A stretch of 64,000 bases of DNA, taken from a virus. Taxonomy: Duplodnaviria > Caudoviricetes. Location of the stretch: positions 32,001-96,000 of the IMG/VR virus record IMGVR_UViG_3300046615_000177. One strand, given 5' to 3'. The translations under genes were made by a program, and so were the position numbers. The notes below the pieces were generated by a model, which searched no databases, was not told the origin of the DNA, and saw nothing but the letters and a program-made list of their open reading frames with translations. Positions 5,219 through 51,299 of this stretch are shown piece by piece; position 1 is the first letter of the stretch; each line of letters begins with the position of its first letter.

Positions 5219-5301
5219 AAATTGTCGGTTATTGGCGAGTTCATTCTATCAGACCCGCCATGGTTTTGAATAGGTTAGACTTCGGAAGTCCTGTAAACGA
5301 C

Positions 5302-28008: not shown

Positions 28009-28046
28009 CTCATACCCACTATACACAGGCAACTCATGGAACTCTT
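28009..28046 (-). promoter_or_regulatory. Phage-specific promoter-like element, copy 1
   Basis: AAGAGTT-CCAT-GAG-TTG-CCTGTG-TATAGT-GGGT-ATGAG. Confidence 0.8.
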
Positions 28047-28497
28047 ACCAGTTAACGTCATCGGTCATAAACAGGTTGGCCTTATGGGGTGTGTTCGTCT
28101 CGTAGAACTCTTCACCCTTATCGTGGCCCCATTTCTTAGCCCACGCGCGACTCTTTTCGATGGTTAGCGCCCGGCTGTAGCGGTCGCCGGACTTGCCGCA
28201 GTCGTGGCAGTGTGACCGGGTAAAGTACAGTCCGCCGCCTTGCCATGGCTCGCCGTCTGTCTCTACGTTAGCGTGTGGGCAGTGGCGCTGTAGTGTTTCA
28301 AGCTCCCACTGAATAACGCGCCTACTGCCCTCTGCTGCCCGCTCCTCCATCTTCGCAGCTTCCAGCCGTTCCTCAATCCGCGCCCGTGCAATGCGCAGCT
28401 CTTCCGAAGGCAGGGACTTGATGTGTATCGGTAGGTAGGTCGGAGCTATGCCCCTCCTCAGGTTGATCGGTGTAGGTCCTTGCAATGCCTTTACCAT
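28045..28497 (-). CDS. Hypothetical protein with zinc finger
   Basis: CPH...CHDCG. Confidence 0.65.
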   Translation of the reverse strand: MVKALQGPTPINLRRGIAPTYLPIHIKSLPSEELRIARARIEERLEAAKMEERAAEGSRRVIQWELETLQRHCPHANVETDGEPWQGGGLYFTRSHCHDCGKSGDRYSRALTIEKSRAWAKKWGHDKGEEFYETNTPHKANLFMTDDVNW

Positions 28498-28862
28498 TGG
28501 ATCACATCCTTGTTCAAGTCTTTGACCTTCTGAAGTGCGTACTCGTGACGCTTCTCGCCCTCACATAGCGTTTTCCAGATCATGGAGCCTTCCACCAGTG
28601 CTGCACCATGCTCCGCGAGTAGGTGCGCTTTGACGGCCAAGATATGCTCCAGTGTCATCCCGCCCTCATTTGGCGGTTTTAAAGGGGACAGCGTGCGTCC
28701 TCGCTTGTCCCGCCATTTGTTGCTTGTAAGTACATCCTCTGTTCGATCCTCGCGCGACGGCAGGTACGGAGAGCCGCTGCTGTGGAACTTCTTTCCGCTC
28801 TTCGAGAACCACTCACCCTGATTCAGGGCGAGGTCCATATAGTAGTCCGCCATCTCACCCAT
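28491..28862 (-). CDS. Hypothetical protein
   Basis: MGEMADYY N-terminus, packed ORF. Confidence 0.65.
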   Translation of the reverse strand: MGEMADYYMDLALNQGEWFSKSGKKFHSSGSPYLPSREDRTEDVLTSNKWRDKRGRTLSPLKPPNEGGMTLEHILAVKAHLLAEHGAALVEGSMIWKTLCEGEKRHEYALQKVKDLNKDVIQW

Positions 28863-29343
28863 TAGCGTCAGCCTTCGGAAGTGCTTCGAGGTCTTCTTGG
28901 AGCCTCCGCAGATCGTCTGTGATATCCCGCGTGCGCTGCATAATCAGCAGTACCACCGGGACCATATCCGTCTCGAAGGCACTCAGGGCGTTGTACTCGT
29001 CCAGCAGCGTGTTAATACCGTCTTGCAGCATAGAGCGCTTGTACTCGATATCGCGCTTCGGAAGTATGTACCCTGTGATCTGCCGGATGGCCTGTTTCTT
29101 ACCTTCTAGCTCTTTCTCCAGCCGCTGGCGCTGCGTCACAAGATAGGCACCCTTACGCTCCAGCTCTTCGTTACCTTCGTTTGTGCGAATGAAGTATTGG
29201 TGGATGCCGTCCTCGATCATGACCACATCCGGCAGCACCCGCTTGATGGTCTCGAACCTCTCCTTGGCGAGTTCGAGATTAGCCATCTCAATGCTGTGGA
29301 AGGTGCGCAGGCGTTCGATATCATCTATCGCCATAGGGGCCAT
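28855..29343 (-). CDS. Hypothetical coiled-coil protein
   Basis: Packed ORF. Confidence 0.65.
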   Translation of the reverse strand: MAPMAIDDIERLRTFHSIEMANLELAKERFETIKRVLPDVVMIEDGIHQYFIRTNEGNEELERKGAYLVTQRQRLEKELEGKKQAIRQITGYILPKRDIEYKRSMLQDGINTLLDEYNALSAFETDMVPVVLLIMQRTRDITDDLRRLQEDLEALPKADANG

Positions 29344-29725
29344 CTCCCTTGTATCCGCGCGGGCGCATTACCCGACCGCTGGTGGCACCGTACATACTGT
29401 CAATCATCCGGTTGGCCCGCGCCTGCACCATACCTTTATGTGTGGCCGAAATAACAGCTCCTACCATCTGCCCGTAGTTGTTGTTTTCTGGAGGTGAGAT
29501 CAGCTTGTTAAGGACCTCTTGCAGCTTGGCCGCTCCTTCGTCATCTCCCACTGCCTGCATGCTCTCGATGGACTCTTTGGTCATTTCAACCACGCCCTTA
29601 ATGAGCGGATGGTCTGAAAGTGTGCCTTCTGCCAGCTCGTTAAGAAGTTGTACCGCTTGCGCGGAGAGGGTGACGGTCAGTGTGCCGTCCTCGTTCAGGG
29701 TCCAGCTCTTGCTCTTGTCACTCAT
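29321..29725 (-). CDS. Hypothetical protein
   Basis: RBS AAGGAG. Confidence 0.65.
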   Translation of the reverse strand: MSDKSKSWTLNEDGTLTVTLSAQAVQLLNELAEGTLSDHPLIKGVVEMTKESIESMQAVGDDEGAAKLQEVLNKLISPPENNNYGQMVGAVISATHKGMVQARANRMIDSMYGATSGRVMRPRGYKGDGPYGDR

Positions 29726-30020
29726 AGTGGATAGTCTCCTTTGGGGCTTCCGCCCTTAGTTCTGTAGTAGCTTGGATTAGCACCTGTTGCTGCTCTGTCA
29801 CGGTTAGTAGCCGGAATCGTGGTACTTCATTTCCTTCTGCATCCTGCACCGTTGTATGGAAGGACTTCTCGGACCGTACCCATACCTGCGGCTTGTCAAC
29901 GTGCATATTTTGATACACGACTGTAGCCTCGCCGTCAGCTTCGCGCTTCGCGTCTGCTATAAGCACCCGATAGTACTCCTTACTCTTATAATGCTGGTAC
30001 ACGCTGCCCGGGTAGATCAT
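29718..30020 (-). CDS. DUF1653-like protein
   Basis: YQHYKSKEYYRV..A..E....VVYQ...WVR...F...PRF pattern. Confidence 0.75.
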   Translation of the reverse strand: MIYPGSVYQHYKSKEYYRVLIADAKREADGEATVVYQNMHVDKPQVWVRSEKSFHTTVQDAEGNEVPRFRLLTVTEQQQVLIQATTELRAEAPKETIHYE

Positions 30021-30640
30021 TAGCCTTTCTCCGGCGCAGAGGGCGGTGTGGCAGCAGGTGCATTAAAGGACAGCGCGCCGGACATCAGCATGGAACCGAT
30101 AGCCTTCGTGACCAGCTCTTGCAGCATCCCGTCTACCCGCTTTTCGTCGAAGTTGGCTGCGACCCGCTCCCTGTACTCCTCAGTCACGTATTGTGGGATA
30201 AGCTTCCGAACCTCGACTTCAACGAGCGGCTTCAGGTCGTCGGTAGCTTTCTGCCACGACTTGCGATAGTCGTCTCCATAATTGCGCACAACTTCCTCAG
30301 CCATCGCCCGGATGGTCTGTCCACTACCTGTGTTGAGGCCCGCCGTTTTCATAGCATTATTGAAGTGTTCCGCAAGGATTTCTGCTCCCCACCCGGAGAA
30401 CGAACGCTTGTGTCCGTTCCACACGTTAGCCTCGTCTATCTTAATGGCAGCGTCAATCATCTGCTGCACCTTACGCTCAGCCAGCTTAGTAGCCTGCTCT
30501 TCCACCTTAGCTGCGATGTGCGGGTTGTTCAGCCACGCGTCCAGCATGGCGCTCGCAAGATTTTGCTTGATCTGCGCGGTAGGCAGTTCCCCATGTACGA
30601 ACCCGATCAGTTCTTCAATGCTCAGTGTAATTTTACCCAT
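30020..30640 (-). CDS. Hypothetical protein
   Basis: RBS AAAGGAG. Confidence 0.7.
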   Translation of the reverse strand: MGKITLSIEELIGFVHGELPTAQIKQNLASAMLDAWLNNPHIAAKVEEQATKLAERKVQQMIDAAIKIDEANVWNGHKRSFSGWGAEILAEHFNNAMKTAGLNTGSGQTIRAMAEEVVRNYGDDYRKSWQKATDDLKPLVEVEVRKLIPQYVTEEYRERVAANFDEKRVDGMLQELVTKAIGSMLMSGALSFNAPAATPPSAPEKG

Positions 30641-30698
30641 TATTTCCAGCTCCTTTGATTTTGTTTGATGGGCAGGTTGCTACCCTGCCCAGTCTTCG

Positions 30699-31007
30699 CT
30701 ACTCCAGCTCTTCTTCTCCGTCATCGTCCCAACTACCCGCGCCTTCGTCCTCTGCCTCTTCCTGCTCTGTCACCCATGTGCGGATGATCTCGCGTTCCCG
30801 TTCGCCCGGTTTGAGGCTGCTGTTGAAGCGGTTTACTACGCCTGCCGCCCGCGCTGTCAGAGCATTACCGACCTCGTCATCGGACAGAGAACCATCATTG
30901 ATGCTCTCTTCTTCGATCTCCACCAGTACCTCTTCCCACGAAGCGGAGGCCTCAAGCTCTTTAGTCTTGGACTTCCGAACCTCACCGTGCACTACGAATA
31001 CCTTCAC
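30699..31007 (-). CDS. Hypothetical acidic protein
   Basis: GTGA overlap. Confidence 0.6.
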   Translation of the reverse strand: MKVFVVHGEVRKSKTKELEASASWEEVLVEIEEESINDGSLSDDEVGNALTARAAGVVNRFNSSLKPGEREREIIRTWVTEQEEAEDEGAGSWDDDGEEELE

Positions 31008-31624
31008 TCCTGCCCGCTCCCTTTAGCTTCCACGGTCTCCATGGCGCTCTCGATTTCTGTTGCTCCCTCTGCCCCGTCTGAGGCGTCGGCTATCTGCTGC
31101 ATCTCTTCAGTCAGCATTCCCATGGTGCGCATACCTGCCTTATTAAAGGCCTCTTCTAAACTTGCCAGCGTCCTCATGGTATACACTCGGGTCTCCAGCG
31201 AACCGCTCAGTCTGTGCATTGCAGTATGAAGGTTCTCAACCTCTTTAAGTAGCTGCGGGTTGCGCAGCACAAAGCTCTTCAGCGGTGCCGCCATGGATAC
31301 AAAGTCCTTATGCTCCCGGCGAATCTTGCGATTCTCTTTAAGCTTCAGAAGTATGCCGTGCGCATCCTTGCGTGGAAAGTCGGCCAGCTCGACCGCGTGG
31401 GTCAAGTCTCCATATTCAAGGTCCATCGCATGCACTTGGTCATGTGCTGCGTCATGCAGGATCGGTACCTTAACCAGCGCATGGTGCAGCATGTCAATCA
31501 GCATCAGAAGCCCACCTGCACCCTTCAGAACCTCGGCGGGTATCGCGGTCTTCATTGCCTGCTCTCCCTGCCGCTTACTCTCTACCAGCCTACGTCTTGC
31601 CTGCCCCATCTCAATCAGTCCCAT
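31004..31624 (-). CDS. Hypothetical coiled-coil protein
   Basis: DLTHAVEL...LKENRKIRREHKD. Confidence 0.65.
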   Translation of the reverse strand: MGLIEMGQARRRLVESKRQGEQAMKTAIPAEVLKGAGGLLMLIDMLHHALVKVPILHDAAHDQVHAMDLEYGDLTHAVELADFPRKDAHGILLKLKENRKIRREHKDFVSMAAPLKSFVLRNPQLLKEVENLHTAMHRLSGSLETRVYTMRTLASLEEAFNKAGMRTMGMLTEEMQQIADASDGAEGATEIESAMETVEAKGSGQE

Positions 31625-33213
31625 CTATCCAGTTTGTATGAGGCTGTGCCTGTTGCTGCTGTCACTCGTATAGTAGCGTTAAGTGCCGCGCCACTTTGTA
31701 GGCGGATACCACATGCCGACGCTTCTTCGTATCCACCAAGCTGTGCGTTCTTCGAATACGATTCGATAGTGGAGCGTACTTCCCGAAGCTCGGACTTCAG
31801 CGTCTCAGGGAATAGCGCAATCCCTGCGCGTCCGGCGCGGTTGTCCCTCGCTCCGTCAAGTATGAAGATAACGGCCTTGCCTTGGTGCGCGTTCTCCTCG
31901 TACCACATGGACGGCTGATATGTGATGCCTGTTACCTTGCACCATCCACTCGTGAGTCCCCATTGAGACGGTGCAGAGCCGCCGCTATATACGTACCAGT
32001 TAACTGGGTTGCGGCGTTCCTCTGTATCCCATTGCAGGATAGGCGGCGCGTCCGCGTTGACAGCGGTCAGGAGCGCGGTGAAGACATCGGTTCCACTACG
32101 CACTTGGTACTCGATAACTTCAGCGTTCGGAAGCACGGTCTCCAAGAACTTACGCCATGTCATAGTGACCGTTGGGAGCGTCATCGCCTTGGCTGGGGTT
32201 GGAGCGTCCTTTGCCTTCAAGTGGCCGAACAATCCGCCAGCCTCTTGCTCGTTCTTCGGAAGTGCAGGCTTCCATATCGTTTCGATCTCGTCCAGCCTTG
32301 CGAATCGGCGTTCTAGTGATGGTGCAAGTCCCAGCTTCTCGAATATCTTCTCGGCTTGGGCGATGTTCCCGGCGCTCGATGCCGCTTGTGGGCGCTGGTA
32401 CTGCAATGGGTTCATCTTGGCAGAGAAACGCTTCTTCACGCTCTCAAACTCCATGCCGGACTGAATGTCGTCGAGCAGGGTCCCGATCATGGAGCTTCTG
32501 ACGTGGGCGAATCCAGCCGGAGCAGTAGCCACCGCCAGCCATACTGCGTTGTTGCGGGTCTTGAGGTTCTTGACATGCACACTGCTTTCCGCCAGCTTCA
32601 GGAACCATTCTGCCACGCCCAGCGTCTTCTCACTACGGTACAGCACCTCACTCTTTAGAAGCGTGACCGCTTGCTGTATGGTTGGCAGGCTGTACGACTG
32701 AATAGCTTCCTGAAGCATCCGATAGTCTTCGCGCTTCTCAGCCATCTTCTGGCCTGCCGTCATAAGGCGGCTTGTGTACACGGACTTCGGAAGCTGGGTA
32801 ACAGACATGTGTGTCCATTCGCCTGTCTGCGGTTGTCCCCATACCTTTTCTTCCGACAGGAACACTCCTGTCACCTCGGCCTTCTTGACCGCCTCAATCA
32901 CTGCATTCACGGACGGCAGGAAGAACGTTGGCGCGTTCAAGTCCCACATGACAGGCTTTATCGTACTGTCCGCCCCGATGGTCACCAGTCCGCCGAAGCG
33001 GTTGACGAAGTTCGCGCAGGCCCGGCAGGTGTAGTACTGTCGAGCTTCGGCGGGCAGGTTGTGTAGGAACAGCTCGAACAGGTTGCCCGCGTCTGTTGTA
33101 AACAGGCGTGTTCCCTCCATTACGTTCGCGCTGTAGTTGTGCCTAACAGCCTGCTCCAGCGCCGGATAGTTGTGGTTGTTCTCATTAGGGGCCGTCCCCG
33201 TAGTCATTGTCAT
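31615..33213 (-). CDS. Large phage protein of unknown function
   Basis: 532-aa ORF, CRAC...F..RFGGLV motif. Confidence 0.8.
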   Translation of the reverse strand: MTMTTGTAPNENNHNYPALEQAVRHNYSANVMEGTRLFTTDAGNLFELFLHNLPAEARQYYTCRACANFVNRFGGLVTIGADSTIKPVMWDLNAPTFFLPSVNAVIEAVKKAEVTGVFLSEEKVWGQPQTGEWTHMSVTQLPKSVYTSRLMTAGQKMAEKREDYRMLQEAIQSYSLPTIQQAVTLLKSEVLYRSEKTLGVAEWFLKLAESSVHVKNLKTRNNAVWLAVATAPAGFAHVRSSMIGTLLDDIQSGMEFESVKKRFSAKMNPLQYQRPQAASSAGNIAQAEKIFEKLGLAPSLERRFARLDEIETIWKPALPKNEQEAGGLFGHLKAKDAPTPAKAMTLPTVTMTWRKFLETVLPNAEVIEYQVRSGTDVFTALLTAVNADAPPILQWDTEERRNPVNWYVYSGGSAPSQWGLTSGWCKVTGITYQPSMWYEENAHQGKAVIFILDGARDNRAGRAGIALFPETLKSELREVRSTIESYSKNAQLGGYEEASACGIRLQSGAALNATIRVTAATGTASYKLDRWD

Positions 33214-33462
33214 TGGTTTAATTCACTCCCTGTTCGTAGTCAATATCGAACTCATACATCTGCGGCAAGTACTGCCGCTTAATCACCAGCCATGCACACC
33301 CGCTCTCATGGTGTGCCATAACGAATACGATCTGATAAGGCTCGCCGCGCACGTTGACCATGCCGCCCTCCCTATACCTACCCCAGCGTTCCAAGATGGA
33401 TACGCTAGGAATGTAGGTGAAGGCGGGATCGTACGGCCTAAAGCGTTGGTGCTCGGTGTCCT

Positions 33463-34341
33463 CTACTTTGGGGAGGGTGGAGCCGGGCGCGGTCTACTAA
33501 CTGGAGGTGCAGGCTGTGTACTCCGTTCATCTATGGTCTGCTCCGCCCCTTGTGACACCGGAGCCGGGACAGCCTTACCCATCACCTGCTGCTGGAACGG
33601 CCTGCCCACATTGGTACGCTTGGTAGCCTTCCCGTTAGCACTGTGATAGATCGTCTCATGGCCTTGGGGCTTCAGCATGACACCTTGTGGATACGATCCC
33701 GCCATGGGTTCCCCGTACTGGCGCTTGTAGCCCAGTATATTGATATAAGGTGTAACGTCTTCCTGCTCATGCATAATCATCAGCAGGTCAACCAGTGCCA
33801 TGGTGTCCTCCATCGCGGAGTGAGCACCTTCGAGCGATACCCCATAATGTGCGGCCATCGCTGTCAGCTTGTGACTACCCTTCGGAACCCGGTCACGCGC
33901 AATGGTTAACGGGCATATGATGTCGATAAATTCGAGATCACCGAAGTGGCCCAGCTGGCGCTCCAGCATATTCTTCAGCACCGTGTAATCAAAGTTGGCG
34001 TTATAAGCGACCAGCACCGGGTCCTCTGCCGTCTCTTCTGGCTCGTTCTCTGCCCCCAGTATCATGTCCCATAAGATGCTTGCCGCTTTGTATTCTGCCA
34101 TACCCTTCAGAAGGTCGGCGCGGCTATGATGTCCGTTCTCCAGCGCCTGCGACCAGCCCGTTTCCGGGTGGTCGTCTGGGTTATAGTAAATCAGGGTGTT
34201 AAACATGCTAGTGACTTCTCCGTCTACTACCCGGACGGCGCACACCTCCACAGGTCTCTGCGCCATCAGATCGAGCTTACCGTCTGGGGTCTGCGCCCCA
34301 TTGGTTTCAAAGTCGAGGAAGAGCATTGTCCGTAAGGTCAT
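33463..34341 (-). CDS. DEDDh 3'-5' exonuclease (DnaQ-like)
   Basis: FLDFETNG, VAYNANFD, AHSAMEDT. Confidence 0.9.
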   Translation of the reverse strand: MTLRTMLFLDFETNGAQTPDGKLDLMAQRPVEVCAVRVVDGEVTSMFNTLIYYNPDDHPETGWSQALENGHHSRADLLKGMAEYKAASILWDMILGAENEPEETAEDPVLVAYNANFDYTVLKNMLERQLGHFGDLEFIDIICPLTIARDRVPKGSHKLTAMAAHYGVSLEGAHSAMEDTMALVDLLMIMHEQEDVTPYINILGYKRQYGEPMAGSYPQGVMLKPQGHETIYHSANGKATKRTNVGRPFQQQVMGKAVPAPVSQGAEQTIDERSTQPAPPVSRPRPAPPSPK

Positions 34342-34628
34342 TAGCTTTCGGCCTCCTCGGTTAGATGCAAATATGGCATAGCGACGGGAGGTTTTGGTGC
34401 AGGAGCTAAAATGTACCGGGTGTAGCTCAATTCTTGAAGTTCTCTCTGCGCCTGTTCCTGCTCTTGTTTCAGCAGCTTAATACCCCTCTTAACAGCTGGA
34501 TCATCGCTCTCGCCGCCGTTGCGTAGTGCTTCGATGGCTGTGCCCCAGTCTCGCACGTTTTCCTGCGCCCGGATAATACAGTCTGCGATATACTCACCAC
34601 GAAGGGATGCGGATGGCATGCTACTCAT
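34341..34628 (-). CDS. Hypothetical protein
   Basis: Likely start MSSMP after GGAGG. Confidence 0.55.
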   Translation of the reverse strand: MSSMPSASLRGEYIADCIIRAQENVRDWGTAIEALRNGGESDDPAVKRGIKLLKQEQEQAQRELQELSYTRYILAPAPKPPVAMPYLHLTEEAES

Positions 34629-34950
34629 TGTCTTCAACCTCCTTGTCCTCAATTTGATCGTACACAATATAATTGTCGTCCTCTCCAAGTACGTAGCGGA
34701 CGCCATCTTTGACGTAGCCCCTGCACCACTTGACGAAAAGGTCGCGCGGTACGCCGCTGGTGTGGCGGCAGTTCGGGGTAGTGTTGTACAGTACATACAT
34801 CCATGTGGTCGCTACGATGTGGCGGCGACGCACTCCGCCGTTGTGAAACTCGGTAACCCCTTCATCCACTAGCTTAGCGAGCTGGGGCCAGCTCAGGCTT
34901 TTAAGTTTGCGACGTGCACTCTCTGCTGCGTTCTTTTGGGTGGCGGTCAT
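34621..34950 (-). CDS. Hypothetical protein
   Basis: ATGA overlap. Confidence 0.6.
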   Translation of the reverse strand: MTATQKNAAESARRKLKSLSWPQLAKLVDEGVTEFHNGGVRRRHIVATTWMYVLYNTTPNCRHTSGVPRDLFVKWCRGYVKDGVRYVLGEDDNYIVYDQIEDKEVEDNE

Positions 34951-35276
34951 TTCGATCTACCCACTTCCGAAGTAGGTGGCGGAGGCGGCTCAATGCCTAA
35001 CGCGATGCGCAATCTCCGGGTCGCTACGTCTACCCGGTATGTCGCGATGTTCATATCGTCGATTGCTACGTTGATGTAGGCGGACTCTGCTTGGTCGAAG
35101 TTCTTCTCAGCTCGCCGGAGTTCCCGGTTGGCCTCAAAGAATTCAATCTGCGCGTCCATGATCCCGTCGTGCGCCGGATTTTTGCCCTTCGGAAGGTCGG
35201 ACAATGCTCCGATTTTTGCCTTGTGCTGATCAATACCGAACAGCCCCGCCATGCTACCGAAAACGCCTTTTACCAT
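34947..35276 (-). CDS. YaaL/DUF2508-like protein
   Basis: A.REL..AEKNFDQAE..YI..AI..MN pattern. Confidence 0.55.
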   Translation of the reverse strand: MVKGVFGSMAGLFGIDQHKAKIGALSDLPKGKNPAHDGIMDAQIEFFEANRELRRAEKNFDQAESAYINVAIDDMNIATYRVDVATRRLRIALGIEPPPPPTSEVGRSK

Positions 35277-35302
35277 ATTCCCAATCCCCTCACGTTGTTG
35301 TT

Positions 35303-35929: not shown

Positions 35930-35958
35930 TTTTACCGCTCCCTCTTAGTGTCAGTTGG

Positions 35959-36020
35959 TGTCGAACGCTCTCAGTATACAACAAGTTTGCACAAGTGTAA
36001 ACAAGTTTCGACAAGTTTCT
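35959..36020 (-). promoter_or_regulatory. SigmaA-type promoter overlapped by a 10-bp iteron / Spo0A-box array
   Basis: TTTACA(36001-35996)-N17-TATACT(35978-35973); ACAAGT at 35981, 35991, 36001 and 36011; perfect 0A boxes at 35959 and 36007. Confidence 0.75.
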
Positions 36021-36059
36021 TCAACGAGGGTATACAAGATTCGACTTTCCACAGGGTAC

Positions 36060-36090
36060 AAAAAGGCGCGGACCACAATCTCCCGCGCCA
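36060..36090 (-). terminator. Rho-independent terminator
   Basis: GGCGCGG...CCGCGCC-TTTTT. Confidence 0.7.
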
Positions 36091-36097
36091 GTCTTGC

Positions 36098-36394
36098 TTA
36101 TTCTGAATCTGCGACTTCCACTTCCATGTCCGGCAGGCTCTCCATTACCTTCATATAGGCGGCGGAGAACCGCGCCTGTGCGTCCAGCTTCTGCTCCAGC
36201 TCGTTGGCGAGCACGCTGCGCACGCGCTCCGGCGCGCTGTACTTCAGAGGCACGTCAGGAGCCTCCCCCAGTAACCACTGAAGATACAAAACTTCGTCCT
36301 TCAGCAGCTCACTCTCTGCCTGCACCTGCTTAACTGTGAATACTGCCACATTACCCACTCCTTCCCTCCCGTTCTGGCTGACCAGTGATGCCAT
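36098..36394 (-). CDS. Hypothetical protein
   Basis: True start probably GTG ~36348 after GGAGGGAAGGAG. Confidence 0.55.
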   Translation of the reverse strand: MASLVSQNGREGVGNVAVFTVKQVQAESELLKDEVLYLQWLLGEAPDVPLKYSAPERVRSVLANELEQKLDAQARFSAAYMKVMESLPDMEVEVADSE

Positions 36395-36431
36395 CTAGAA
36401 CTATGCAGGTGTGGAGCGCTGGTGTCAATCT

Positions 36432-36665
36432 CTACATGACAGTACGCATGTATGCGTTGATGCCGACGACCTTGCATAAGCAGGTAATCTCATTCGGCTC
36501 AATATCCATAACTTCCCAGTACACCGCTTCCTGCTCAGGCACGTTTCCTGCGCTTCGGAAGACCTTGCCTACGAACAAAACCTCTTTACCTAGTATGGTC
36601 AGCCTGTGCTCGTCGCCCATCTCGTATACTGTAGCAGAATTCTCGCTCTCACCCATCCCAATCAT
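36432..36665 (-). CDS. Hypothetical protein
   Basis: Packed ORF. Confidence 0.55.
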   Translation of the reverse strand: MIGMGESENSATVYEMGDEHRLTILGKEVLFVGKVFRSAGNVPEQEAVYWEVMDIEPNEITCLCKVVGINAYMRTVM

Positions 36666-36669
36666 CTCC

Positions 36670-37143
36670 CTATAAGTTGTATGCCATCACTTCTTCAGCG
36701 CCGCGAGCCACTAGCACTCCCGGGAGGGCGCACAGGCCCAAGGCAGCGAGCCGCCCGGACATCATGTCGTCCTGCTGCCGCCAGTACGCTACATCGGCAG
36801 CGGTGCCCATCTGCGTGACCTCGATGTACGATCCGTATCCGGTATTAACGCACACTACCTCAATGCACACAACACCGCTGAACTTCCGAAGGAAGGCAGT
36901 GTTCGGTCCGTCCCACTCCGGCAGGTCAACCAGCTCCTGAACCCGGACAAGCTTGGACACACCCAGTTCCCATAGTCCAGCTGTGCGCTCCCCAAACAAG
37001 GCATACGCAAGGTTACGCGCCCGCCATCCGTTCAGCGGAAGCACCTGCGTTTCTACGCCAGTCCCCGTATGGCGGACCCCTGTTGCTTTGCCTACCTCCG
37101 TGTCCACACGCACCAGCTCGTACCCGTATTTTAAGTTGATCAT
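36670..37143 (-). CDS. Hypothetical protein
   Basis: ATGA overlap, RBS AGGGAG. Confidence 0.65.
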   Translation of the reverse strand: MINLKYGYELVRVDTEVGKATGVRHTGTGVETQVLPLNGWRARNLAYALFGERTAGLWELGVSKLVRVQELVDLPEWDGPNTAFLRKFSGVVCIEVVCVNTGYGSYIEVTQMGTAADVAYWRQQDDMMSGRLAALGLCALPGVLVARGAEEVMAYNL

Positions 37144-37367
37144 TTTGCAACTCTCCCTTGTCTTTGTGTTGGCAGTACCTTAACGCCGTGCGAAGCTAAC
37201 AGCGCCGCATCTGTGGCACGAGCAAACGGTATAAACTCTTCGAAGGTCATCGGTTTCTTCCGATTGTTACTATACTTCCGAAGCTTACACTCATATGATC
37301 TGTACCTACCTGCTAGGAATCCAAAGTTACCGGAGTACCTTGGCCTCCATGCTCGTTTCTCGCTCAT
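37140..37367 (-). CDS. Hypothetical basic protein
   Basis: TAATG overlap with the upstream small gene. Confidence 0.55.
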   Translation of the reverse strand: MSEKRAWRPRYSGNFGFLAGRYRSYECKLRKYSNNRKKPMTFEEFIPFARATDAALLASHGVKVLPTQRQGRVAK

Positions 37368-37537
37368 TACGAATTTCTCCGCCAGTTTATAATAACATCC
37401 ATCATACCCTCTTCTGCGGCGCGACGGGTTTTAAATTCCCCTCTTGTCTCTGCACCGTCGGTAATAGTGAAGTAGGATTCCCCGGACTCATTCGGCCAGC
37501 GCGACGGAACAACGGAAAAGCTTTGTACATCAGACAC
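37367..37537 (-). CDS. Small protein (56 aa) not in the ORF track
   Basis: GTG start after AAGGAG; MSDVQSFSVVPSRWPNESGESYFTITDG...NWRRNS*. Confidence 0.6.
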   Translation of the reverse strand: MSDVQSFSVVPSRWPNESGESYFTITDGAETRGEFKTRRAAEEGMMDVIINWRRNS

Positions 37538-37545
37538 ACTATCAT

Positions 37546-37623
37546 CTCCTTAGTTTTATTTGGGGTATCCTCCCCAAGTCAAAGGCCAAGCTATTGACTC
37601 CGCTTGGCCTTATCCTTCGTTAG
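37546..37623 (-). ncRNA. Candidate structured RNA leader, copy 1
   Basis: CGAAGGAT-[AAGGCCAAGC/GCTTGGCCTT]-TGACTTGGGGAGGATACCCCAAATAAAACTAAGGAG. Confidence 0.55.
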
Positions 37624-37624
37624 G

Positions 37625-38059
37625 CTACCCGACGATCCGGGACTCACTAATTATTACTTCAAACTCCTTGCCTTCGTCTTTCCGCTGAAAGCGCGCGGTA
37701 CCACTAGATAAATGGTCAGCTATTACCATATTCTCGATAATATCCAGCTCGCGCGCCTGCGCTGTGTCGAAGGCCTTAGACACCGCTGTCCGGTAATCCC
37801 TTGCTTCCCCTACCGAAAGGAAGCCCTCCGTAGGGCACACAGTGAAGGTCTTACCATTGGCCGGAATGTGGATGGCAACTAGGTAAATCAGCGGCGTACC
37901 CCTGTTCGGGTCGTACTGATTGGAGTATGTGAACATATTCCACTTATCTGGGCTGTCAATCAGGCGGGTGTTCCACCATTCCATGGTGGCCTTGCTGAAC
38001 CAGTGATGGCCGGAAGCCTTATCGTTTCTCTTCATCGCTGCAAAAGTCATCTTTTTCAT
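37625..38059 (-). CDS. Hypothetical early protein
   Basis: Start MKKMTF behind a phage promoter element. Confidence 0.7.
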   Translation of the reverse strand: MKKMTFAAMKRNDKASGHHWFSKATMEWWNTRLIDSPDKWNMFTYSNQYDPNRGTPLIYLVAIHIPANGKTFTVCPTEGFLSVGEARDYRTAVSKAFDTAQARELDIIENMVIADHLSSGTARFQRKDEGKEFEVIISESRIVG

Positions 38060-38101
38060 TGTCAGTTCCCCTTTGGTTTTTGGTTTGGAAGCTCCCGCTC
38101 C

Positions 38102-38139
38102 CTCATATTCAATATACACAGGTTTCTCGTATAACTATT
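38102..38139 (-). promoter_or_regulatory. Phage-specific promoter-like element, copy 2
   Basis: AATAGTT-ATAC-GAG-AAA-CCTGTG-TATATT-GAAT-ATGAG. Confidence 0.78.
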
Positions 38140-38163
38140 ATGGACTTCCGAAGAGCACCCGGC

Positions 38164-38373
38164 TTATACCGCTTTAGCTGGGCGTACTGCATCTAGGTGT
38201 GTGGTGGGGTTGCTGTGTACTCCGTTGCAGAATCCTACGTTGTACGCTTGGTCGCCATACGTGCGCCATCCCGTTCTCATGATCTGCTCTTCAGAACCCG
38301 GAGTAGGTTTGTGCAGCTTACCGCAGAGGGCGCACCAGTACGAACGCCCTGCTGTTCCGAATTCTTCCTGCAT
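38164..38373 (-). CDS. Small Cys-containing protein
   Basis: RBS AAGGAGG; CALCG. Confidence 0.65.
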   Translation of the reverse strand: MQEEFGTAGRSYWCALCGKLHKPTPGSEEQIMRTGWRTYGDQAYNVGFCNGVHSNPTTHLDAVRPAKAV

Positions 38374-38444
38374 TGTTCTATCCTCCTTCCTTTCACGGAT
38401 TAAAGAGGGGAGGGCAGCACGTCTGCCACCCGTCGCTCTTTGTG

Positions 38445-38924
38445 TTAAGGCTTCATTAGCTGGTAAAACCCTCTCTTACCTGCGTTCTCCAGTAGACCGC
38501 TACGGACAATGTGGTTATGAGCACTCGCGTAGTTATTCCACTTGAACCCGCTTGACTCCATCCGGGTGCGTATGTGGCTAAACTCCAGCGGACGTCCAGC
38601 GTCCCGCATAACCGCCCGTAGGGTGTCGTCGAAGTTCAGCCGCTCGGTAGCGCTCATTCTGCCACTAACCTCAACGGTTGTCGTGGTAGAGTACACCGTG
38701 CGTACCATATTGCGCTCGTCGAAGCGTGCCCACATATCATGCTCCATGATCAGTTCCGCGCGCTCCAGCTTCAGAGCCTCCAGCTCCTTGGTGATCTCCA
38801 GCATACGGTCGTCTACTTCATACATCCGGTGCTGAATAGCTTGGTTACGCTTGGAGATGATGTCGTTTGCTGTGACTACTGGAATATCCGAAATCAGGTC
38901 GTTGAGGTTGTTCATTTGTGGCAT
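38445..38924 (-). CDS. Rok-like DNA-binding protein (coiled coil + winged helix)
   Basis: N-terminal coiled coil ...LKLER...; C-terminal VMRDAGRPL...KWNN...RGFYQL resembles Bacillus Rok. RBS AAGGAGG. Confidence 0.55.
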   Translation of the reverse strand: MPQMNNLNDLISDIPVVTANDIISKRNQAIQHRMYEVDDRMLEITKELEALKLERAELIMEHDMWARFDERNMVRTVYSTTTTVEVSGRMSATERLNFDDTLRAVMRDAGRPLEFSHIRTRMESSGFKWNNYASAHNHIVRSGLLENAGKRGFYQLMKP

Positions 38925-38973
38925 GTTTATGCCCTCCTTAGATTTGTTTTGGGAGCGGTAGGTATCCGCTCCC

Positions 38974-39011
38974 CTCATATATAACATACACAGGTAACTC
39001 TCGGAACTCTT
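38974..39011 (-). promoter_or_regulatory. Phage-specific promoter-like element, copy 3
   Basis: AAGAGTT-CCGA-GAG-TTA-CCTGTG-TATGTT-ATAT-ATGAG. Confidence 0.8.
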
Positions 39012-39046
39012 GTGGCACTAATGCTATCACTTTATGGTGAATTTTG

Positions 39047-39781
39047 TTAAATGTCAATACTGTCACCCGAATTTTGTCGTTCTTGACGGTATGCCTCGTT
39101 GTCCAGTTCAACGCTGCGCGCTTCTCGGCAGTACTCGTCATCCTCCAGCTTACCACTGCCTACACAGTAGTTTGTGCAGGTGCAGGCAGACTCGCAGGGT
39201 GCTTCATCCTCGACGCTCTGTATCATCCAGCCATCGCGCCGCAGTGCTCGCAACGCCGTATGATATTCTTCGTCCTTCGGAAGTGTACGAGGATACAGAT
39301 GGTCAAAGAAGAATCCAAAGTCGTTACGGTCGTGCACCTTGTAGTTGCTAACAGTCTGCATAATGGAATCGTACTTCTCGCGCACGGCGGCAATCACCGG
39401 GTTCTTCAGCGCCTCTGTAACTCTCACATCTTCCGGGACCAGCGTGCTAGGTACAAGACTAAACCTCATTAGGTGCGCGTAATTGTGCGCCCCGTCAAGA
39501 GTCTGGGAGACCCCGACGTAAGCTTCCTTTCCTTGATGCAGTCCGTGGTACTGTAAAAGCCACTTCCGAAGTGGGGCAGCAGCGTCCAGTGCATTGTGCA
39601 TGAAGTTACGGTGCCGTCTCCGGGAACCCAAAGCTGCGGAAATCGCGCGTTTGTCGGTCGCTACGCCGTACACAAGCTTCCAGTAGGTCAGCCATATTTC
39701 AACGCACTCGCGGCGTTGCTCTTGCGTCATGTCCGTTACACTGTAGGGCAAATGTCTAATCTGATCATAGGGTGGTTTCAT
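39047..39781 (-). CDS. Hypothetical protein with C-terminal Cys cluster
   Basis: RBS AAGGAG. Confidence 0.7.
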   Translation of the reverse strand: MKPPYDQIRHLPYSVTDMTQEQRRECVEIWLTYWKLVYGVATDKRAISAALGSRRRHRNFMHNALDAAAPLRKWLLQYHGLHQGKEAYVGVSQTLDGAHNYAHLMRFSLVPSTLVPEDVRVTEALKNPVIAAVREKYDSIMQTVSNYKVHDRNDFGFFFDHLYPRTLPKDEEYHTALRALRRDGWMIQSVEDEAPCESACTCTNYCVGSGKLEDDEYCREARSVELDNEAYRQERQNSGDSIDI

Positions 39782-39846
39782 AGTAATCTCTCCTTTTGGG
39801 TTATGTAGCGATAAGGCCGAAGCTTCGGAAGCCCCGGCCTTATCGC

Positions 39847-40569
39847 TTATTTGTAGAAATTTGTATAGAAACGGGCGTTAGGGCTGAAGACGAAACCAGA
39901 TTCTTCAGCATGCCGGGTAAGTGCCTGATCTTCCACGATCTCGAACTCATGGTCAAGGGATAGCTGCTTTTGCCATAGCTTCGCGTACTCTTCTGCTGCC
40001 TTTAAGGTCTTGAACTTCTCAATAAGCCCATGACCTGCGGGCATCCCCTTGTACTTGTCCTTCACGTAGCTGTAGTTCGCGTACCCTCCATTGACCTCAT
40101 GCGGGGTCTCTCCCAGCGTTGTGTGGGTGCCCTGCACGTGGACCTCATACCTGTAGCTTTTCAGGTCGTCACGGTCCCATACATAGGTCTTAAAATGATA
40201 GGCGGATGTTTGAAGCTCCCACATCGCCAGCATTTTTGCGTTGCGGGCCTCCGCGCCTCCTTCTACCCATGCCCCTACCTTCAGGTACCTAGCCATCCCT
40301 GCCAGCTTGTTCATCCGGGTAATGCGCCGGAGGTGGTTGTCCTCCACCTTCTTAAGCTCAGCAATCCGCTCCGTTAGCTCCCGGCGCTCGTCGGTGGCCT
40401 GCTGCGCCATCCGCAGCTCCATATCCATAGCTTCTTGATACGAGACCTTTCGGGTCGCACGTTTAACTTGGTTCATTATTATCGTCTCCTTGTATAGGTT
40501 TTTAGCGGTTGGGAATGCTGTGTACTGGGCGCCTGTACGGTCACCAGTGATACCCATCGGTGCGCCCAT
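39847..40569 (-). CDS. Hypothetical protein
   Basis: AAGGAG precedes both ATG 40569 and ATG 40476. Confidence 0.7.
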   Translation of the reverse strand: MGAPMGITGDRTGAQYTAFPTAKNLYKETIIMNQVKRATRKVSYQEAMDMELRMAQQATDERRELTERIAELKKVEDNHLRRITRMNKLAGMARYLKVGAWVEGGAEARNAKMLAMWELQTSAYHFKTYVWDRDDLKSYRYEVHVQGTHTTLGETPHEVNGGYANYSYVKDKYKGMPAGHGLIEKFKTLKAAEEYAKLWQKQLSLDHEFEIVEDQALTRHAEESGFVFSPNARFYTNFYK

Positions 40570-40616
40570 TGTCTCTCCTTGGGGAGCCGCCTTTGGTCTG
40601 GGTGGCTCCGCTTTGC

Positions 40617-40823
40617 TTACTTCTGAAGTGGTCCCTTTACGAACACATACCGCAGCACGAACCTGCGCACCTTCATATACAATCTTCCGCTGGTGGTCTT
40701 AATCTCTATATCGCCGTCACCATTAAAGTCGGGGTGGTCAGAGGCACCCACGACGCAGCAGTACTTTCCGTGCTCCATGTAGTCCTCGTCTACACACTGC
40801 CAAAAGCTGCCCGATTGGATCAT
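40617..40823 (-). CDS. Hypothetical protein
   Basis: ATGA overlap. Confidence 0.6.
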   Translation of the reverse strand: MIQSGSFWQCVDEDYMEHGKYCCVVGASDHPDFNGDGDIEIKTTSGRLYMKVRRFVLRYVFVKGPLQK

Positions 40824-41293
40824 AGTTCTTCTTCGGAAGCCCGCATCGGTTCGTACTCCACCACTCCGGCTGCAACCAACTCGTCGCGGCGGAGCACATA
40901 TTCCCTGAAATAGCCGTCCATCGCTGCTGCGGCCTCCGGTTCGGCGGCACGCATCGTCTCGATATACATGCGAAGCAGCTCGTTCAGTCCCTTTAGCCGC
41001 CCTTGCTCGTACGTATCACATTCGGAAAATCCTCTCACCCGGTTAACAGGCAGTTGCATTTCCCGGCCGTAGTAGTCCGTACCGATCAGGCAGTACACCT
41101 TGCCGTGGTATGGAAGGTCCACTTCCTGCATTTCTGTGATAGCGAACTCCCGTACCGTCGACTGCGCGGTCAGGAGCACCATGCCCATGTCCCGCTGTGC
41201 TTTCGGCATATAACCATAGGTGCCTTCCATGGTGATGTCGAGCACCCGGTTAACCATCGTTGCCGCCCGTACTTTTCCGTTTTCGATAATCAT
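40820..41293 (-). CDS. Hypothetical protein
   Basis: ATGA overlap, RBS AGGAG. Confidence 0.7.
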   Translation of the reverse strand: MIIENGKVRAATMVNRVLDITMEGTYGYMPKAQRDMGMVLLTAQSTVREFAITEMQEVDLPYHGKVYCLIGTDYYGREMQLPVNRVRGFSECDTYEQGRLKGLNELLRMYIETMRAAEPEAAAAMDGYFREYVLRRDELVAAGVVEYEPMRASEEEL

Positions 41294-41499
41294 TTGTCAT
41301 CGCTCCTACTTTCGATTTTTACGGTCAGGCCTAGCTCTTCTAGTACCTTATCCAGTGTGTCAATGTTGTAGTTGCTACCGTTCAGTATGCGGTGAATTTG
41401 CGGGTGATCCCATCCCAGATTAGCAGCCAGTCCCCGCTTGGACAGGCCTTTCGAGAGAAGGGCAGATTCGATAGCCGCCGCGAACTGCTGCTTTAGCAT
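41290..41499 (-). CDS. XRE-family HTH regulator
   Basis: KGLSKRGLAANLGWDHPQIHRILNGSNYNIDTLDKV. Confidence 0.8.
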   Translation of the reverse strand: MLKQQFAAAIESALLSKGLSKRGLAANLGWDHPQIHRILNGSNYNIDTLDKVLEELGLTVKIESRSDDK

Positions 41500-41948
41500 G
41501 GCGGCTGGTCTTCCGACATGCGCTTCTCGTAATCGAGAATTTCCTCGTACGTCAGCCACTCCGGCTTATGGCCTTCGGGGAACGAGTCGTGAAGCTCTTT
41601 CATTTTCTCAATCTGTCCCTCTACGGTACCTGCCCATAGCTGAGAAACAGCTCGATTCCCATTCCCTAGGAAGTACTTACAGTCACCTTGCAGCCTATCC
41701 AGCAGCATATAGCTAAATCTGTATGGACTCTCTTCATATTTGGTCTTGAAGACTACCACCAGCTCGCTCTTGATGGGAGTACAAGGCTCGCCGTCAAACT
41801 CCCCATTGCTGCTACTGTACAGATCGGGAGTACTCCCATCCGATAGGTCCTTCCATAGGTTGCCGTTTTCGAGGCACTTATACACGGGTCTATCCCAATC
41901 ATCCTTACCGATAAACTCCATTGTTCTTACGTTCGTTGCAGCTTCCAT
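41493..41948 (-). CDS. LPD11-domain protein
   Basis: YMLLDRLQGDCKYFLGNGNR...LWAG.VE.QI..MKEL...KPEWLT. Confidence 0.8.
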   Translation of the reverse strand: MEAATNVRTMEFIGKDDWDRPVYKCLENGNLWKDLSDGSTPDLYSSSNGEFDGEPCTPIKSELVVVFKTKYEESPYRFSYMLLDRLQGDCKYFLGNGNRAVSQLWAGTVEGQIEKMKELHDSFPEGHKPEWLTYEEILDYEKRMSEDQPPC

Positions 41949-41957
41949 TCTCAGCAT

Positions 41958-42036
41958 CTCCCTTAGTTTTGTTTGGGGTAGGCTCCCCAAGTCAGGCCCG
42001 GAACCTTTGCAAGCGCTCCGAACCGTCCTTCGATAG
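41958..42036 (-). ncRNA. Candidate structured RNA leader, copy 2
   Basis: CGAAGGAC-[GGTTCGGAGC/GTTCCGGGCC]-TGACTTGGGGAGCCTACCCCAAACAAAACTAAGGGAG. Confidence 0.55.
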
Positions 42037-42037
42037 C

Positions 42038-42673
42038 TTACTGCAATGGTCTCGCCAGCTCTTCCTTGATAAATGCGTGCCAGTCCGTAGGCCGGAGCCA
42101 CGTCAGCATGATACTGCCGCGTTCTTCCAATGCCTTTACATGGTCGTCCCACTTCCGAAGTTCTCCATAAAAGAACTTCGAATTCCAGAACGCCTTTAGC
42201 TCCTTCAGGTTGGACACCTGATTCGTGATTCGCTCGATCGACTTATGTGTCTCGGTGAACAGCTCTACGAGAAAGAGGGTATCCTTCTGGGTTGTAGGAT
42301 CAGAGAAGATGACATTCGCGTCCGCCTCGTTCGGGTCATCCTTTCGCAGGATGAACCGAATACTTGACTTACCTCTTGTGTACCTGACTTCCGGGCAGTC
42401 AAAGGTGTCATTATGAATACTCTCTATGATGGAACCTTTGGCTACCGGAAACTCATTGGTCTTCCATTTGAAGCTCCGCACCTGCCGCTCTGCCTCCCGT
42501 AGGAGCTTCATGCCGTCCCCGTCCTTCTGAAGGGTGAAGGTGTCCAGCAGCTTCTTCTCCCCGGTCAGAGGGTTGATCGCGTGGGCATCCCACGTCGACC
42601 GTCCCTCCGTGTTTGTTCCTGCGACAAGCTCTCCAACAATAACTCCGGCTTTTGCGACGATCATTTTCATCAT
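42038..42673 (-). CDS. Hypothetical early protein
   Basis: Start MMKMIV behind a phage promoter element. Confidence 0.7.
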   Translation of the reverse strand: MMKMIVAKAGVIVGELVAGTNTEGRSTWDAHAINPLTGEKKLLDTFTLQKDGDGMKLLREAERQVRSFKWKTNEFPVAKGSIIESIHNDTFDCPEVRYTRGKSSIRFILRKDDPNEADANVIFSDPTTQKDTLFLVELFTETHKSIERITNQVSNLKELKAFWNSKFFYGELRKWDDHVKALEERGSIMLTWLRPTDWHAFIKEELARPLQ

Positions 42674-42712
42674 GCTCCCTATATTTGTGATAGGGGCGGA
42701 GGGTACCGCCCC

Positions 42713-42750
42713 TTCATTTTCATTATACACAGGTTTCTCGTAAAACTCTT
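42713..42750 (-). promoter_or_regulatory. Phage-specific promoter-like element, copy 4
   Basis: AAGAGTT-TTAC-GAG-AAA-CCTGTG-TATAAT-GAAA-ATGAA. Confidence 0.82.
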
Positions 42751-42770
42751 AGTGTCCCAAGGCTTGCGGC

Positions 42771-42917
42771 TTAAAGCACGTCGCCCCAAGTTTTTCCGTG
42801 CTTGGCGTTCAGCCAGTCTCCCAGATCGGAGAACCACATATCGAGTGCGGGGTCGTAGAAGCCTTCTTGCTTGTCGTGTACCAGCGTGTCCATATCTCTC
42901 ATAACCTTTGCATCCAT
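42771..42917 (-). CDS. Small protein (48 aa) not in the ORF track
   Basis: RBS AGGAG; MDAKVMRDMDTLVHDKQEGFYDPALDMWFSDLGDWLNAKHGKTWGDVL*; has its own promoter element. Confidence 0.65.
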   Translation of the reverse strand: MDAKVMRDMDTLVHDKQEGFYDPALDMWFSDLGDWLNAKHGKTWGDVL

Positions 42918-42954
42918 CAGTACCAGCTCCTAAATAATATTTGGGGTTCCTCCC

Positions 42955-42992
42955 CTCATTCACACTATACACAGGCCTCTCACAGAACTCTT
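42955..42992 (-). promoter_or_regulatory. Phage-specific promoter-like element, copy 5
   Basis: AAGAGTT-CTGT-GAG-AGG-CCTGTG-TATAGT-GTGA-ATGAG. Confidence 0.8.
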
Positions 42993-43227: not shown

Positions 43228-43232
43228 CGTCG

Positions 43233-51179: not shown

Positions 51180-51299
51180 TGTCGAATAAAGTAGAATTGT
51201 GTTAGTTCGTACTTTATTCTACCTTCAGCCTGTACAAGTGTCAACAAGTTTTTACAAGTTTGAACAACTTTCGACAAAGAAAAGACGACTCTTGTCGAA
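51180..51299 (-). promoter_or_regulatory. SigmaA-type promoter with five 10-bp iterons and three Spo0A boxes
   Basis: TTGACA(51244-51239)-N17-TAGAAT(51221-51216); ACAA every 10 bp from 51234 to 51274; 0A boxes at 51180, 51270 and 51293. Confidence 0.8.

Follow-up and report, generated by a model that had tools for sequence, protein, structure and literature searches.

We identified a predicted phage-specific promoter class in a 64,000-nucleotide (nt) stretch of the Caudoviricetes record IMGVR_UViG_3300046615_000177 from IMG/VR (positions 32,001 to 96,000; hereafter the window), together with a candidate protein that may read it. The elements combine a heptamer, 14 nt of spacer and the block TGTATRNT, and are referred to here as P-class promoters. 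They are present in the whole 106,642-bp record (G000) and in four uncultivated syntenic relatives (G001 to G004), at 42 sites in all. The five genomes together define a promoter code in which the -10 block is constant and the -35 block differs from phage to phage. Judged from their sequences, the elements are a real phage-specific promoter class, and the host main sigma factor should not be expected to read them. The candidate reader is a sigma-like module within a giant SNF2 protein that all five phages encode. We see about an even chance that this module reads P-class promoters with the host core RNA polymerase.

Seven copies of a 38-bp element in the G000 genome

The window was scanned with the pattern AAGAGTTNNNNGAGNNNCCTGTGTATRNTNNNNATGAR, allowing up to three mismatches, and 100 dinucleotide-preserving shuffles served as the control. 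The pattern matched five times, always on the minus strand and where the initial annotation had reported five 38-bp elements of identical spacing; no match occurred in the shuffles. Two further minus-strand copies at genome positions 2778-2815 and 3194-3231 bring the whole G000 genome to seven. Each copy consists of a heptamer (AAGAGTT in five copies, AATAGTT in two), 10 variable bases, CCTG (GCTG once), TGTATRNT, and six bases ending in T, followed by GAG or GAA.

The distance from AAGAGT to TATRNT is exactly 17 nt in 7/7 copies, as had been claimed. The description of the -10 element as TG-extended was inexact, because the TG abuts the hexamer (TG-TATAGT, at -14/-13) and is not one base away, as in the canonical extended -10, TGnTATAAT. 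The GAG triplet noted in the spacer is no more than a purine-rich tendency when the whole family is considered. The -35 element was called non-host, and the heptamers indeed differ from the TTGACA of other promoters in the same phage. The genes behind the window elements are small accessory genes, also as described, with open reading frames (ORFs) of 48, ~210, ~160, 144 and 248 amino acids (aa; Table 1).

The promoter class in five related phages

G001 (99,180 bp) was reached through a conventional 434-aa sigma factor encoded in the window (38% identical), and 55 proteins are shared in synteny. The sigma-like module led to G002 (104,950 bp), G003 (102,131 bp) and G004 (80,258 bp, 83% complete). 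The five phages range from 40 to 55% in G+C content, and their shared proteins are mostly 30-75% identical. The P-class architecture was found in 5/5 phages, at 42 sites that are all co-directional with genes and all have the 14-nt spacing. The promoter class and the sigma-SNF2 gene thus co-occur in every one of the five genomes, which was the check on relatives that the initial annotation had proposed.

Each phage has its own heptamer: AAGAGTT or AATAGTT in G000 (7 sites), TAGAATT-N10-CCTG-TGTATAGT in G001 (10 sites), TAGAGAA-N10-CGTA-TGTATGGT in G002 (13 sites), TCCACTT-N10-CCTA-TGTATAGT in G003 (7 sites) and TATACTT-N10-CCTT-TGTATAGT in G004 (5 sites). The distance from the first six bases of the heptamer to TATRNT is 17 nt at 42/42 sites, which is the bipartite geometry of the sigma70 family. 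The hexamer always has A at position 2 and T at position 6, and TG directly abuts it at every site, a different arrangement from the TGnTATAAT extended -10. A conserved T and then purines are located 6-8 nt past the -10, where the start is predicted. Information per position was 1.6-1.9 bits in the heptamer and 1.6-2.0 bits in TGTATRNT with the 4 nt before it, compared with 1.0-1.3 bits in the purine-rich spacer and 0.35-0.7 bits in the 25 nt upstream. The heptamer was never paired with TGTATRNT at spacings of 8-13 or 15-20 nt, or on the opposite strand, in any of the five genomes; as the heptamer patterns were taken from these very sites, this count is a partly circular consistency check. Exact-pattern scans of IMG/VR returned the G001 family only, plus chance matches in contigs of ~35-39% G+C.

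P-class sites are located 64-91 nt before the start codon where the gene call is clean. They stand before variable small genes located between the replication module and the packaging module (5/5 phages), before the gene for the free SNF2 helicase (G001, G002 and G003), before other replication-module genes and, in G003 and G004, before a gene close upstream of the giant gene. The heptamers vary from phage to phage while TGTATRNT stays constant. With five different heptamers in one fixed -35 position, a host sigma factor of any kind is an unlikely reader and a phage-encoded one is favoured.

The palindrome CTTC(C/G)GAAG is abundant in these genomes, with 151 copies in G000 and 145 in G001 against fewer than one expected; one example in the window is at 38140-38160. 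It lies within 60 nt upstream of 9/17 P-class promoters of G000 and G001, often 10-15 nt before the heptamer, and also in the spacers of three TTGAC-type promoters (genome 3647, 29662 and 41723).

Host-type promoters in the same phages

Intergenic promoters of the form TTGACA-N17-TAnAAT were found in G000 at genome positions 99762, 94025, 83244, 68001 and 3647, and several TTGACA-type promoters are kept at orthologous G001 sites. All five phages keep a canonical TGnTAnAAT extended -10 without a clear -35 before the 70-aa/portal operon and another directly before the giant gene (window 13489-13535 and 5164-5436). As TTGACA-type and TGn promoters coexist with the P-class in the same phages, the P-class is a distinct class and the host main holoenzyme is served by ordinary signals. 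A generic sigma70 scan of window 26500-46000 listed none of the five elements, and the generic sigma70 and terminator scan gave no enrichment over shuffles.

One host-type site, TTGACA-N17-TAAAGT at window 39057-39029, is located 46 nt upstream of P-class promoter 3, and the two may form a tandem pair of different promoter classes. Ahead of replication genes, the TTGACA-type promoters are embedded in arrays of AAAGTTGT/AAACTTGT and TGTCGAA-like repeats (window 51200-51320, 61950-62100 and 35970-36010; genome 99688-99842). These arrays are kept at orthologous G001 sites and look like operator arrays. A hairpin, CCCCTACC...GGTAGGGG, followed immediately by TTGTTnTATAAT, is kept in 5/5 phages upstream of a 179-aa tail-module gene (genome 20566-20640). 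It may join a terminator to a promoter, or it may be a promoter of a late type.

A sigma-like module within a giant SNF2 protein

The giant gene is located between structural genes, in the order portal, 430 aa, 167 aa, LPD1/ParB polyvalent protein, giant protein, prohead protease/scaffold, major head protein and tail genes. Proteins of this kind (~2,300 aa, with the module) are encoded by 5/5 promoter-bearing phages, and the module is the only sigma-like protein common to them.

Profile and fold comparisons indicate that the module is sigma-like, a probable member of the sigma70 family with regions 2, 3 and 4 in order. An hhalign comparison of 13 homologues, drawn from a 1.8-billion-protein library, with a sigma alignment gave a probability of 97.7% (E-value 1.5e-12) across regions 2-4. 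The AlphaFold model of the module had a mean predicted local distance difference test score of 70.6. All the Foldseek matches listed for it in the PDB were sigma-containing RNA polymerase complexes or sigma models (E-values 1.9e-4 to 6e-3, 320-416 columns), with low template-modelling scores, as expected for a flexible multi-domain protein. The hhalign and Foldseek results bear out the sigma domain named in the initial annotation. Further, phmmer aligned the module weakly but colinearly with sigA regions 2.4-3.0, and one homologue has been named 'specialized sigma subunit' by the Joint Genome Institute. A local hidden Markov model search of all ORFs of at least 60 aa gave the giant proteins as the best non-self matches of the sigma profile, and the reverse was also true. 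A tblastn search of the module against 50,697 GenBank phage records gave no match, and a single-protein scan with a more distant sigma-SNF2 homologue (P0019) found no relatives.

The region-2-like part of the module is well conserved across the five phages. By contrast, its region-4.2-like helix is variable at the positions that correspond to the DNA-contacting residues of sigma70, and is most alike in G003 and G004, whose heptamers share T..ACTT. Both of these phages, in which the 434-aa sigma was not found, have a P-class promoter 1.7-2.3 kb upstream of the giant gene (G003 71449-73154, where it stands before a ~500-aa ORF, and G004 tx-index 13789-16083). If the module reads P-class promoters, this arrangement would amount to positive feedback.

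In G001, group-I-intron-like cores (AAGATATAGTC) split the giant sigma-SNF2 gene into ORFs of 1,590 and 726 aa. Such cores, located at G001 54230-54852 and 71292-71506 and upstream of the terminase in G004, also interrupt or flank the terminase gene.

Which factor reads the P-class promoters

RNA polymerase beta and beta' Pfam domains were absent from all five genomes, and a search for single-subunit RNA polymerases, run without a positive control, was also blank. With no phage-encoded RNA polymerase, the host core polymerase must be used, with a specificity factor supplied by the phage. The case for the sigma-like module as this factor has two main supports: it is the only sigma-like protein common to the five phages, and the 434-aa sigma is absent from the complete G003 genome. 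In the proposed mechanism, the region-2-like part would read the constant TGTATRNT and the variable region-4-like helix would read the phage-specific heptamer. Together with the host core polymerase, the module would initiate at the G/A of T-G-A-G, 7-8 nt past the hexamer. Its targets would be the small, variable accessory genes and also, in relatives, some of the replication genes.

Several observations weigh against this role. The module's match to Pfam Sigma70_r3 was sub-threshold (E-value 4.9e-4), and it lacks the -10-melting aromatics of sigma70, with an invariant His and Arg at the aligned positions. Across the ten genome pairs, identity of the region-4.2-like helix was not significantly correlated with heptamer similarity (Spearman 0.22, p 0.55), which makes the covariation argument anecdotal; heptamer similarity tracked overall divergence instead (0.71, p 0.02). 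Co-occurrence alone does not single out the giant protein, as many other proteins are common to all five phages. The heptamers have an AGA core in the three phages with the 434-aa sigma and ACTT in the two without it, a split that is also compatible with the 434-aa sigma acting in those three. G003 is classed as 'linear' and G004 is incomplete. The -10 hexamer is itself host-sigA-like, and the sequencing runs that contain the G000 sequence are rhizosphere DNA only, with no RNA run among them. A modelled complex of the region-2 part with B. subtilis beta' residues 220-340 scored 0.15 against a mark of 0.32 and speaks neither for nor against binding. The initial annotation's choice of the virion-fused sigma domain as the cognate factor is partly supported, by the module being the only sigma-like protein in 5/5 phages and not by covariation of helix and heptamer.

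The initial annotation went further, to an injected-sigma/early-promoter system. In that extension, the module would be present in the capsid within the SNF2 protein, enter with the DNA and capture host core polymerase, and P-class promoters would be immediate-early and independent of sigA. The SNF2 motor may help to draw in or clear DNA, or to recycle polymerase. The position of the giant gene among head genes, next to that for the LPD1/ParB polyvalent protein, fits by analogy the pattern of injected 'polyvalent proteins'. The giant gene also has its own conserved host-type extended -10 promoter, so the protein could simply be made after infection. We regard delivery with the virion together with early use of the promoters as tentative and, on balance, more probably wrong than right. 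The timing of the P-class, immediate-early or middle, would hinge on the giant protein entering together with the DNA or not.

Among other explanations, the best is that the host sigA holoenzyme reads TATRNT while a phage protein that is not a sigma factor, either an activator or an appropriation pair like MotA/AsiA, binds the heptamer in place of region 4. The A and T at positions 2 and 6 of the hexamer (42/42) are sigA-like, and phage-specific heptamers could be explained by any phage-encoded DNA-binding protein. Moreover, a gene served by a host-type promoter in one phage can have an orthologue served by a P-class promoter in another (G000 genome 88924 and G001 24918; G000 106474 and G001 6937). 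Against this, no candidate activator was identified, the heptamer is at the exact distance of sigma region 4 (17 nt) at 42/42 sites, and 5/5 phages encode a sigma-like module. We consider this explanation unlikely, though still one to be reckoned with.

The 434-aa protein is a bona fide sigma factor by Pfam regions 2 and 4, and it could be the cognate factor of a middle class, transcribed after sigA-driven expression of its gene. The gene, part of an operon with a TTGACA promoter in front, lies 2.5 kb from the promoter cluster on its upstream side, no CATA -10 class in G000 or G001 would provide it with targets of its own, and the three phages that have it share the AGA heptamer core. However, protein searches, Pfam regions 2 and 4 and a local profile search of ORFs of at least 60 aa found it in G000, G001 and G002 only. 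G003 is 100% complete according to CheckV and contiguous across the syntenic sigma site, and it has seven P-class promoters and no conventional sigma candidate; the absence of the sigma from G004 is uninformative because the contig ends near that place. The DNA-reading helices also argue against it. The closest solved structures are of sigE/sigK region 2, its helices of regions 2.4 and 4.2 nearly match those of host sigE/K, and the region 4.2 helix SQSY(I/V)SR is constant in three phages with differing heptamers. These features make the 434-aa sigma an improbable reader of the P-class.

The -10 elements of sigE/sigK-type promoters begin with CATA. No such class was found in G000 or G001, and none at P-class sites; CATAYANT and CATANNNTA occur in G000 2 and 7 times forward and 7 and 10 times reverse, and are not enriched on the transcribed strand. 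Given the sigE/K-like region 2.4, the constant helix and the lack of a CATA class, the 434-aa sigma may act on host sporulation promoters. Action on host sporulation has been proposed by Schwartz et al. for phage sigmas of this kind. A single-protein scan with the 434-aa sigma found no relatives, and bacterial sigE/K genes overwhelmed a metagenome scan with the sigma alignment, from which no phage relative emerged.

It is very improbable that a host alternative sigma reads the P-class without a phage factor: the phage does carry a sigE/K-like sigma, an apparent tie to sporulation biology, and hosts of such a kind have many alternative sigmas, but five phages of 40-55% G+C each have a different heptamer and there is no match to the sigE/K -10. 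The sigH, sigF, sigG, sigB and sigD consensus sequences entered this comparison as general background. We give equally little credence to the elements being something other than promoters (for example, sites of partition, packaging or RNA processing, or functionless, recently duplicated cassettes), for although only DNA runs contain the sequence and three G001 copies are near-identical over the whole cassette, as recent duplication would give, all 42 sites are co-directional with genes and stand 64-91 nt from the start codon where the gene call is clean, conservation is limited to the -35- and -10-like blocks with unconserved flanks, the architecture persists across divergent genomes, and no Rfam family matched in the window.

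A predicted 5' hairpin, A-rich stretch and ribosome-binding site follow the promoters

The initial annotation had described a GC hairpin, an A-rich leader and a ribosome-binding site after each copy. A stem-loop is predicted to begin 1-4 nt past the predicted start (the G of ATGAR) at 7/7 G000 copies and at 15/15 copies of one set from G000 and G001. The G000 stems have 4-10 bp, all differ in sequence and loop, and two of the seven do not exceed shuffled sequence in stability (z +0.25 and +0.03), so the description is borne out with that reservation. Across the five genomes, the hairpins differ in stem sequence and not in position. A Shine-Dalgarno sequence and start codon lie 40-52 nt after the predicted start in G000. 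The 5' hairpin, a AAAACAAA-like stretch and the ribosome-binding site were found at all but two or three of the 42 sites; the sites that lack or may lack a hairpin are G001 6937 and 24918 and G004 21735.

A hairpin at the 5' end would shield the mRNA from 5'-end-dependent decay, and the A-rich stretch with a strong Shine-Dalgarno sequence would drive strong translation. The ompA leader of E. coli, the aprE leader of B. subtilis and the SP82 early-RNA stabiliser similarly combine a stem-loop near the 5' end with a strong ribosome-binding site downstream, although here the 5' end is only predicted. Unlike these stabilisers, the same hairpin, AAAACAAA-like stretch and ribosome-binding site are also present between genes that have no promoter motif (window 52404-52458, 41903-42037, 40570-40616, 37538-37624 and 30641-30698). 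This makes the arrangement a leader element in general use in the phage, separate from promoter recognition, and its promoterless copies may be processing or stabiliser sites for polycistronic RNA.

Comparison with known phage systems

SPO1 uses host sigA for its early promoters, gp28 for middle and gp33/gp34 for late promoters, with phage sigma-type factors that redirect the host core polymerase (PMC13401047). The phages studied here resemble SPO1 in having many closely set strong promoters, each with its own ribosome-binding site, before small accessory genes, and in a distant terminase kinship. However, SPO1 takeover genes use host sigA promoters and P-class genes do not. The sigma factor proposed here is also no small free protein but forms part of a 2,321-aa SNF2 protein encoded in the head region. 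The G001 sequence CGTTAGAAT may resemble the SPO1 late -35.

RNA polymerase beta/beta', sigma and helicase were detected by mass spectrometry in particles of Salmonella phage Arash (PMC10585845), the only description of a virion-packaged or injected sigma that we found in the literature. The N4 virion RNA polymerase, phiKZ/AR9 and Arash share with our proposal the concept of a specificity component that is made late, carried in the particle and used to read dedicated early promoters; here this is proposed from gene position. Those phages bring a whole polymerase, whereas no beta, beta' or single-subunit RNA polymerase domain was found in the five genomes studied here. N4 promoters are DNA hairpins upstream of the start; the hairpin here is downstream of the predicted start and in the transcript, an arrangement distinct from that of N4.

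Iyer et al. (2017, PMC5512222) proposed that polyvalent proteins of phages and conjugative elements are injected to 'jump-start transcription or replication'. The giant protein resembles these proteins, including the P1 DarB type, in being a giant multidomain protein with a SWI2/SNF2 ATPase, encoded beside an LPD1/ParB protein and between the portal and head protease genes. It differs from them in that no methylase was found here. No set of cognate promoters is known to have been connected with a protein of this type, and the survey's main text uses the word 'sigma' 0 times (PMC5512222).

Middle promoters of T4 also combine a host-like -10 with a phage-specific element that replaces the -35. 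This element, the MotA box, has its centre at -30; a protein that is not a sigma factor reads it, and AsiA remodels sigma70. No MotA/AsiA homologue was seen in the phages studied here, and none was searched for.

Phage-specific promoters read by phage sigmas are textbook knowledge, while a giant head-gene SNF2 protein as the likely reader is unusual. What sets the present system apart from SPO1, N4, phiKZ/AR9 and Arash is the lack of a phage polymerase, the sigma-like module fused to an SNF2 motor, and the defined promoter code. The sigma-SNF2 head protein gains a testable system in core polymerase plus module on P-class promoters. Should injection of the protein take place, viruses would have a new means of seizing host transcription at time zero, and a virion-delivered sigma with its own promoter code would stand between phage sigma cascades and injected whole polymerases. 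For Bacillus-type hosts, the cassette of promoter, 5' hairpin, A-rich leader and ribosome-binding site may also be of use as an orthogonal part for gene expression.

Genome context and other features

The coordinates of the main features are collected in Table 1.

Table 1 Features discussed in the text (window positions unless marked as genome positions)
Feature	Position	Strand	Remarks
P-class promoter 1	42955..42992	minus	heptamer 42992-42986; -10 hexamer 42969-42964; predicted start 42957/42956; predicted 5' hairpin 42955-42943; ORF 42917-42771 (48 aa)
P-class promoter 2	42713..42750	minus	heptamer 42750-42744; -10 hexamer 42727-42722 (TATAAT); predicted start 42715/42714; predicted 5' hairpin 42715-42689 (-18.5 kcal/mol); ORF about 42682/42670-42038 (~210 aa)
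P-class promoter 3	38974..39011	minus	heptamer 39011-39005; -10 hexamer 38988-38983 (TATGTT); predicted start 38976/38975; predicted 5' hairpin 38973-38951; ORF about 38933/38924-38445 (~160 aa, phrog_34763, function unknown)
P-class promoter 4	38102..38139	minus	1 mismatch, heptamer AATAGTT; -10 hexamer 38116-38111 (TATATT); predicted start 38104/38103; predicted 5' hairpin 38102-38087; ORF 38059-37625 (144 aa); CTTCGGAAG 14 nt upstream of heptamer
P-class promoter 5	28009..28046	minus	heptamer 28046-28040; -10 hexamer 28023-28018; predicted start 28011/28010; predicted 5' hairpin 28009-27996; ORF 27968-27222 (248 aa, N-terminal hydrophobic leader, phrog_9683 'protease')
Giant protein, 2,321 aa	genome 30198-37163; window 1..5163 (N-terminal 1,721 codons)	minus	proposed promoter reader
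Sigma-like module of giant protein	about 4500-3240 (aa ~220-640)	minus	SNF2 ATPase at aa ~1598-2201, mostly outside window
434-aa phage sigma	45487..46791	minus	Pfam Sigma70_r2 1.7e-12 and r4 6.3e-9; intrinsic terminator 45484-45452; rival reader
TTGACA-N17-TAGAAT	51216..51244	minus	upstream of 515-aa gene operon that includes the 434-aa sigma gene; kept at orthologous G001 site
Further TTGACA-type sites	67762 (beyond window end), 62025, 36001
TTCAAA-N16-TAGAAT	5241..5270	minus	TGA before hexamer (TGnTAGAAT); directly upstream of giant gene

The ends of the G000 record share an overlap of ~115 bp, which makes it effectively a closed assembly. The genome has a G+C content of 55%, and almost all genes are on the minus strand. 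Window genes include those for a family A DNA polymerase, class II ribonucleotide reductase, ligase, tubulin, portal, terminase and the 434-aa sigma; genes for a primase-MCM helicase, the free SNF2 helicase, a tape-measure protein with lysin domains and the 2,321-aa SNF2 protein are wholly or partly outside it. The terminase is ~31% identical to those of SPO1-group Bacillus phages, which indicates a distant relative. No tRNA genes were found, leaving no host pointer from that source, and the major head protein had no relative among 185,579 species genomes, so no host was identified. A megablast search of window 27000-45000 against GenBank phages gave no match.

Close behind the 434-aa sigma gene, window 43953-45065 encodes a GTPase of the tubulin/FtsZ family (phrog 'tubulin PhuZ'; Pfam Tubulin 5.6e-14), for which G001 to G004 gave no homologue. 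At the G000 assembly junction (genome 1-120 and 106509-106642) there is a G-rich element, GGGGAGGGAGGGGGGG, with A/T runs and short inverted repeats. A similar element is present in G001 at a different map position (50802-50989), and the element may be a packaging or replication signal.

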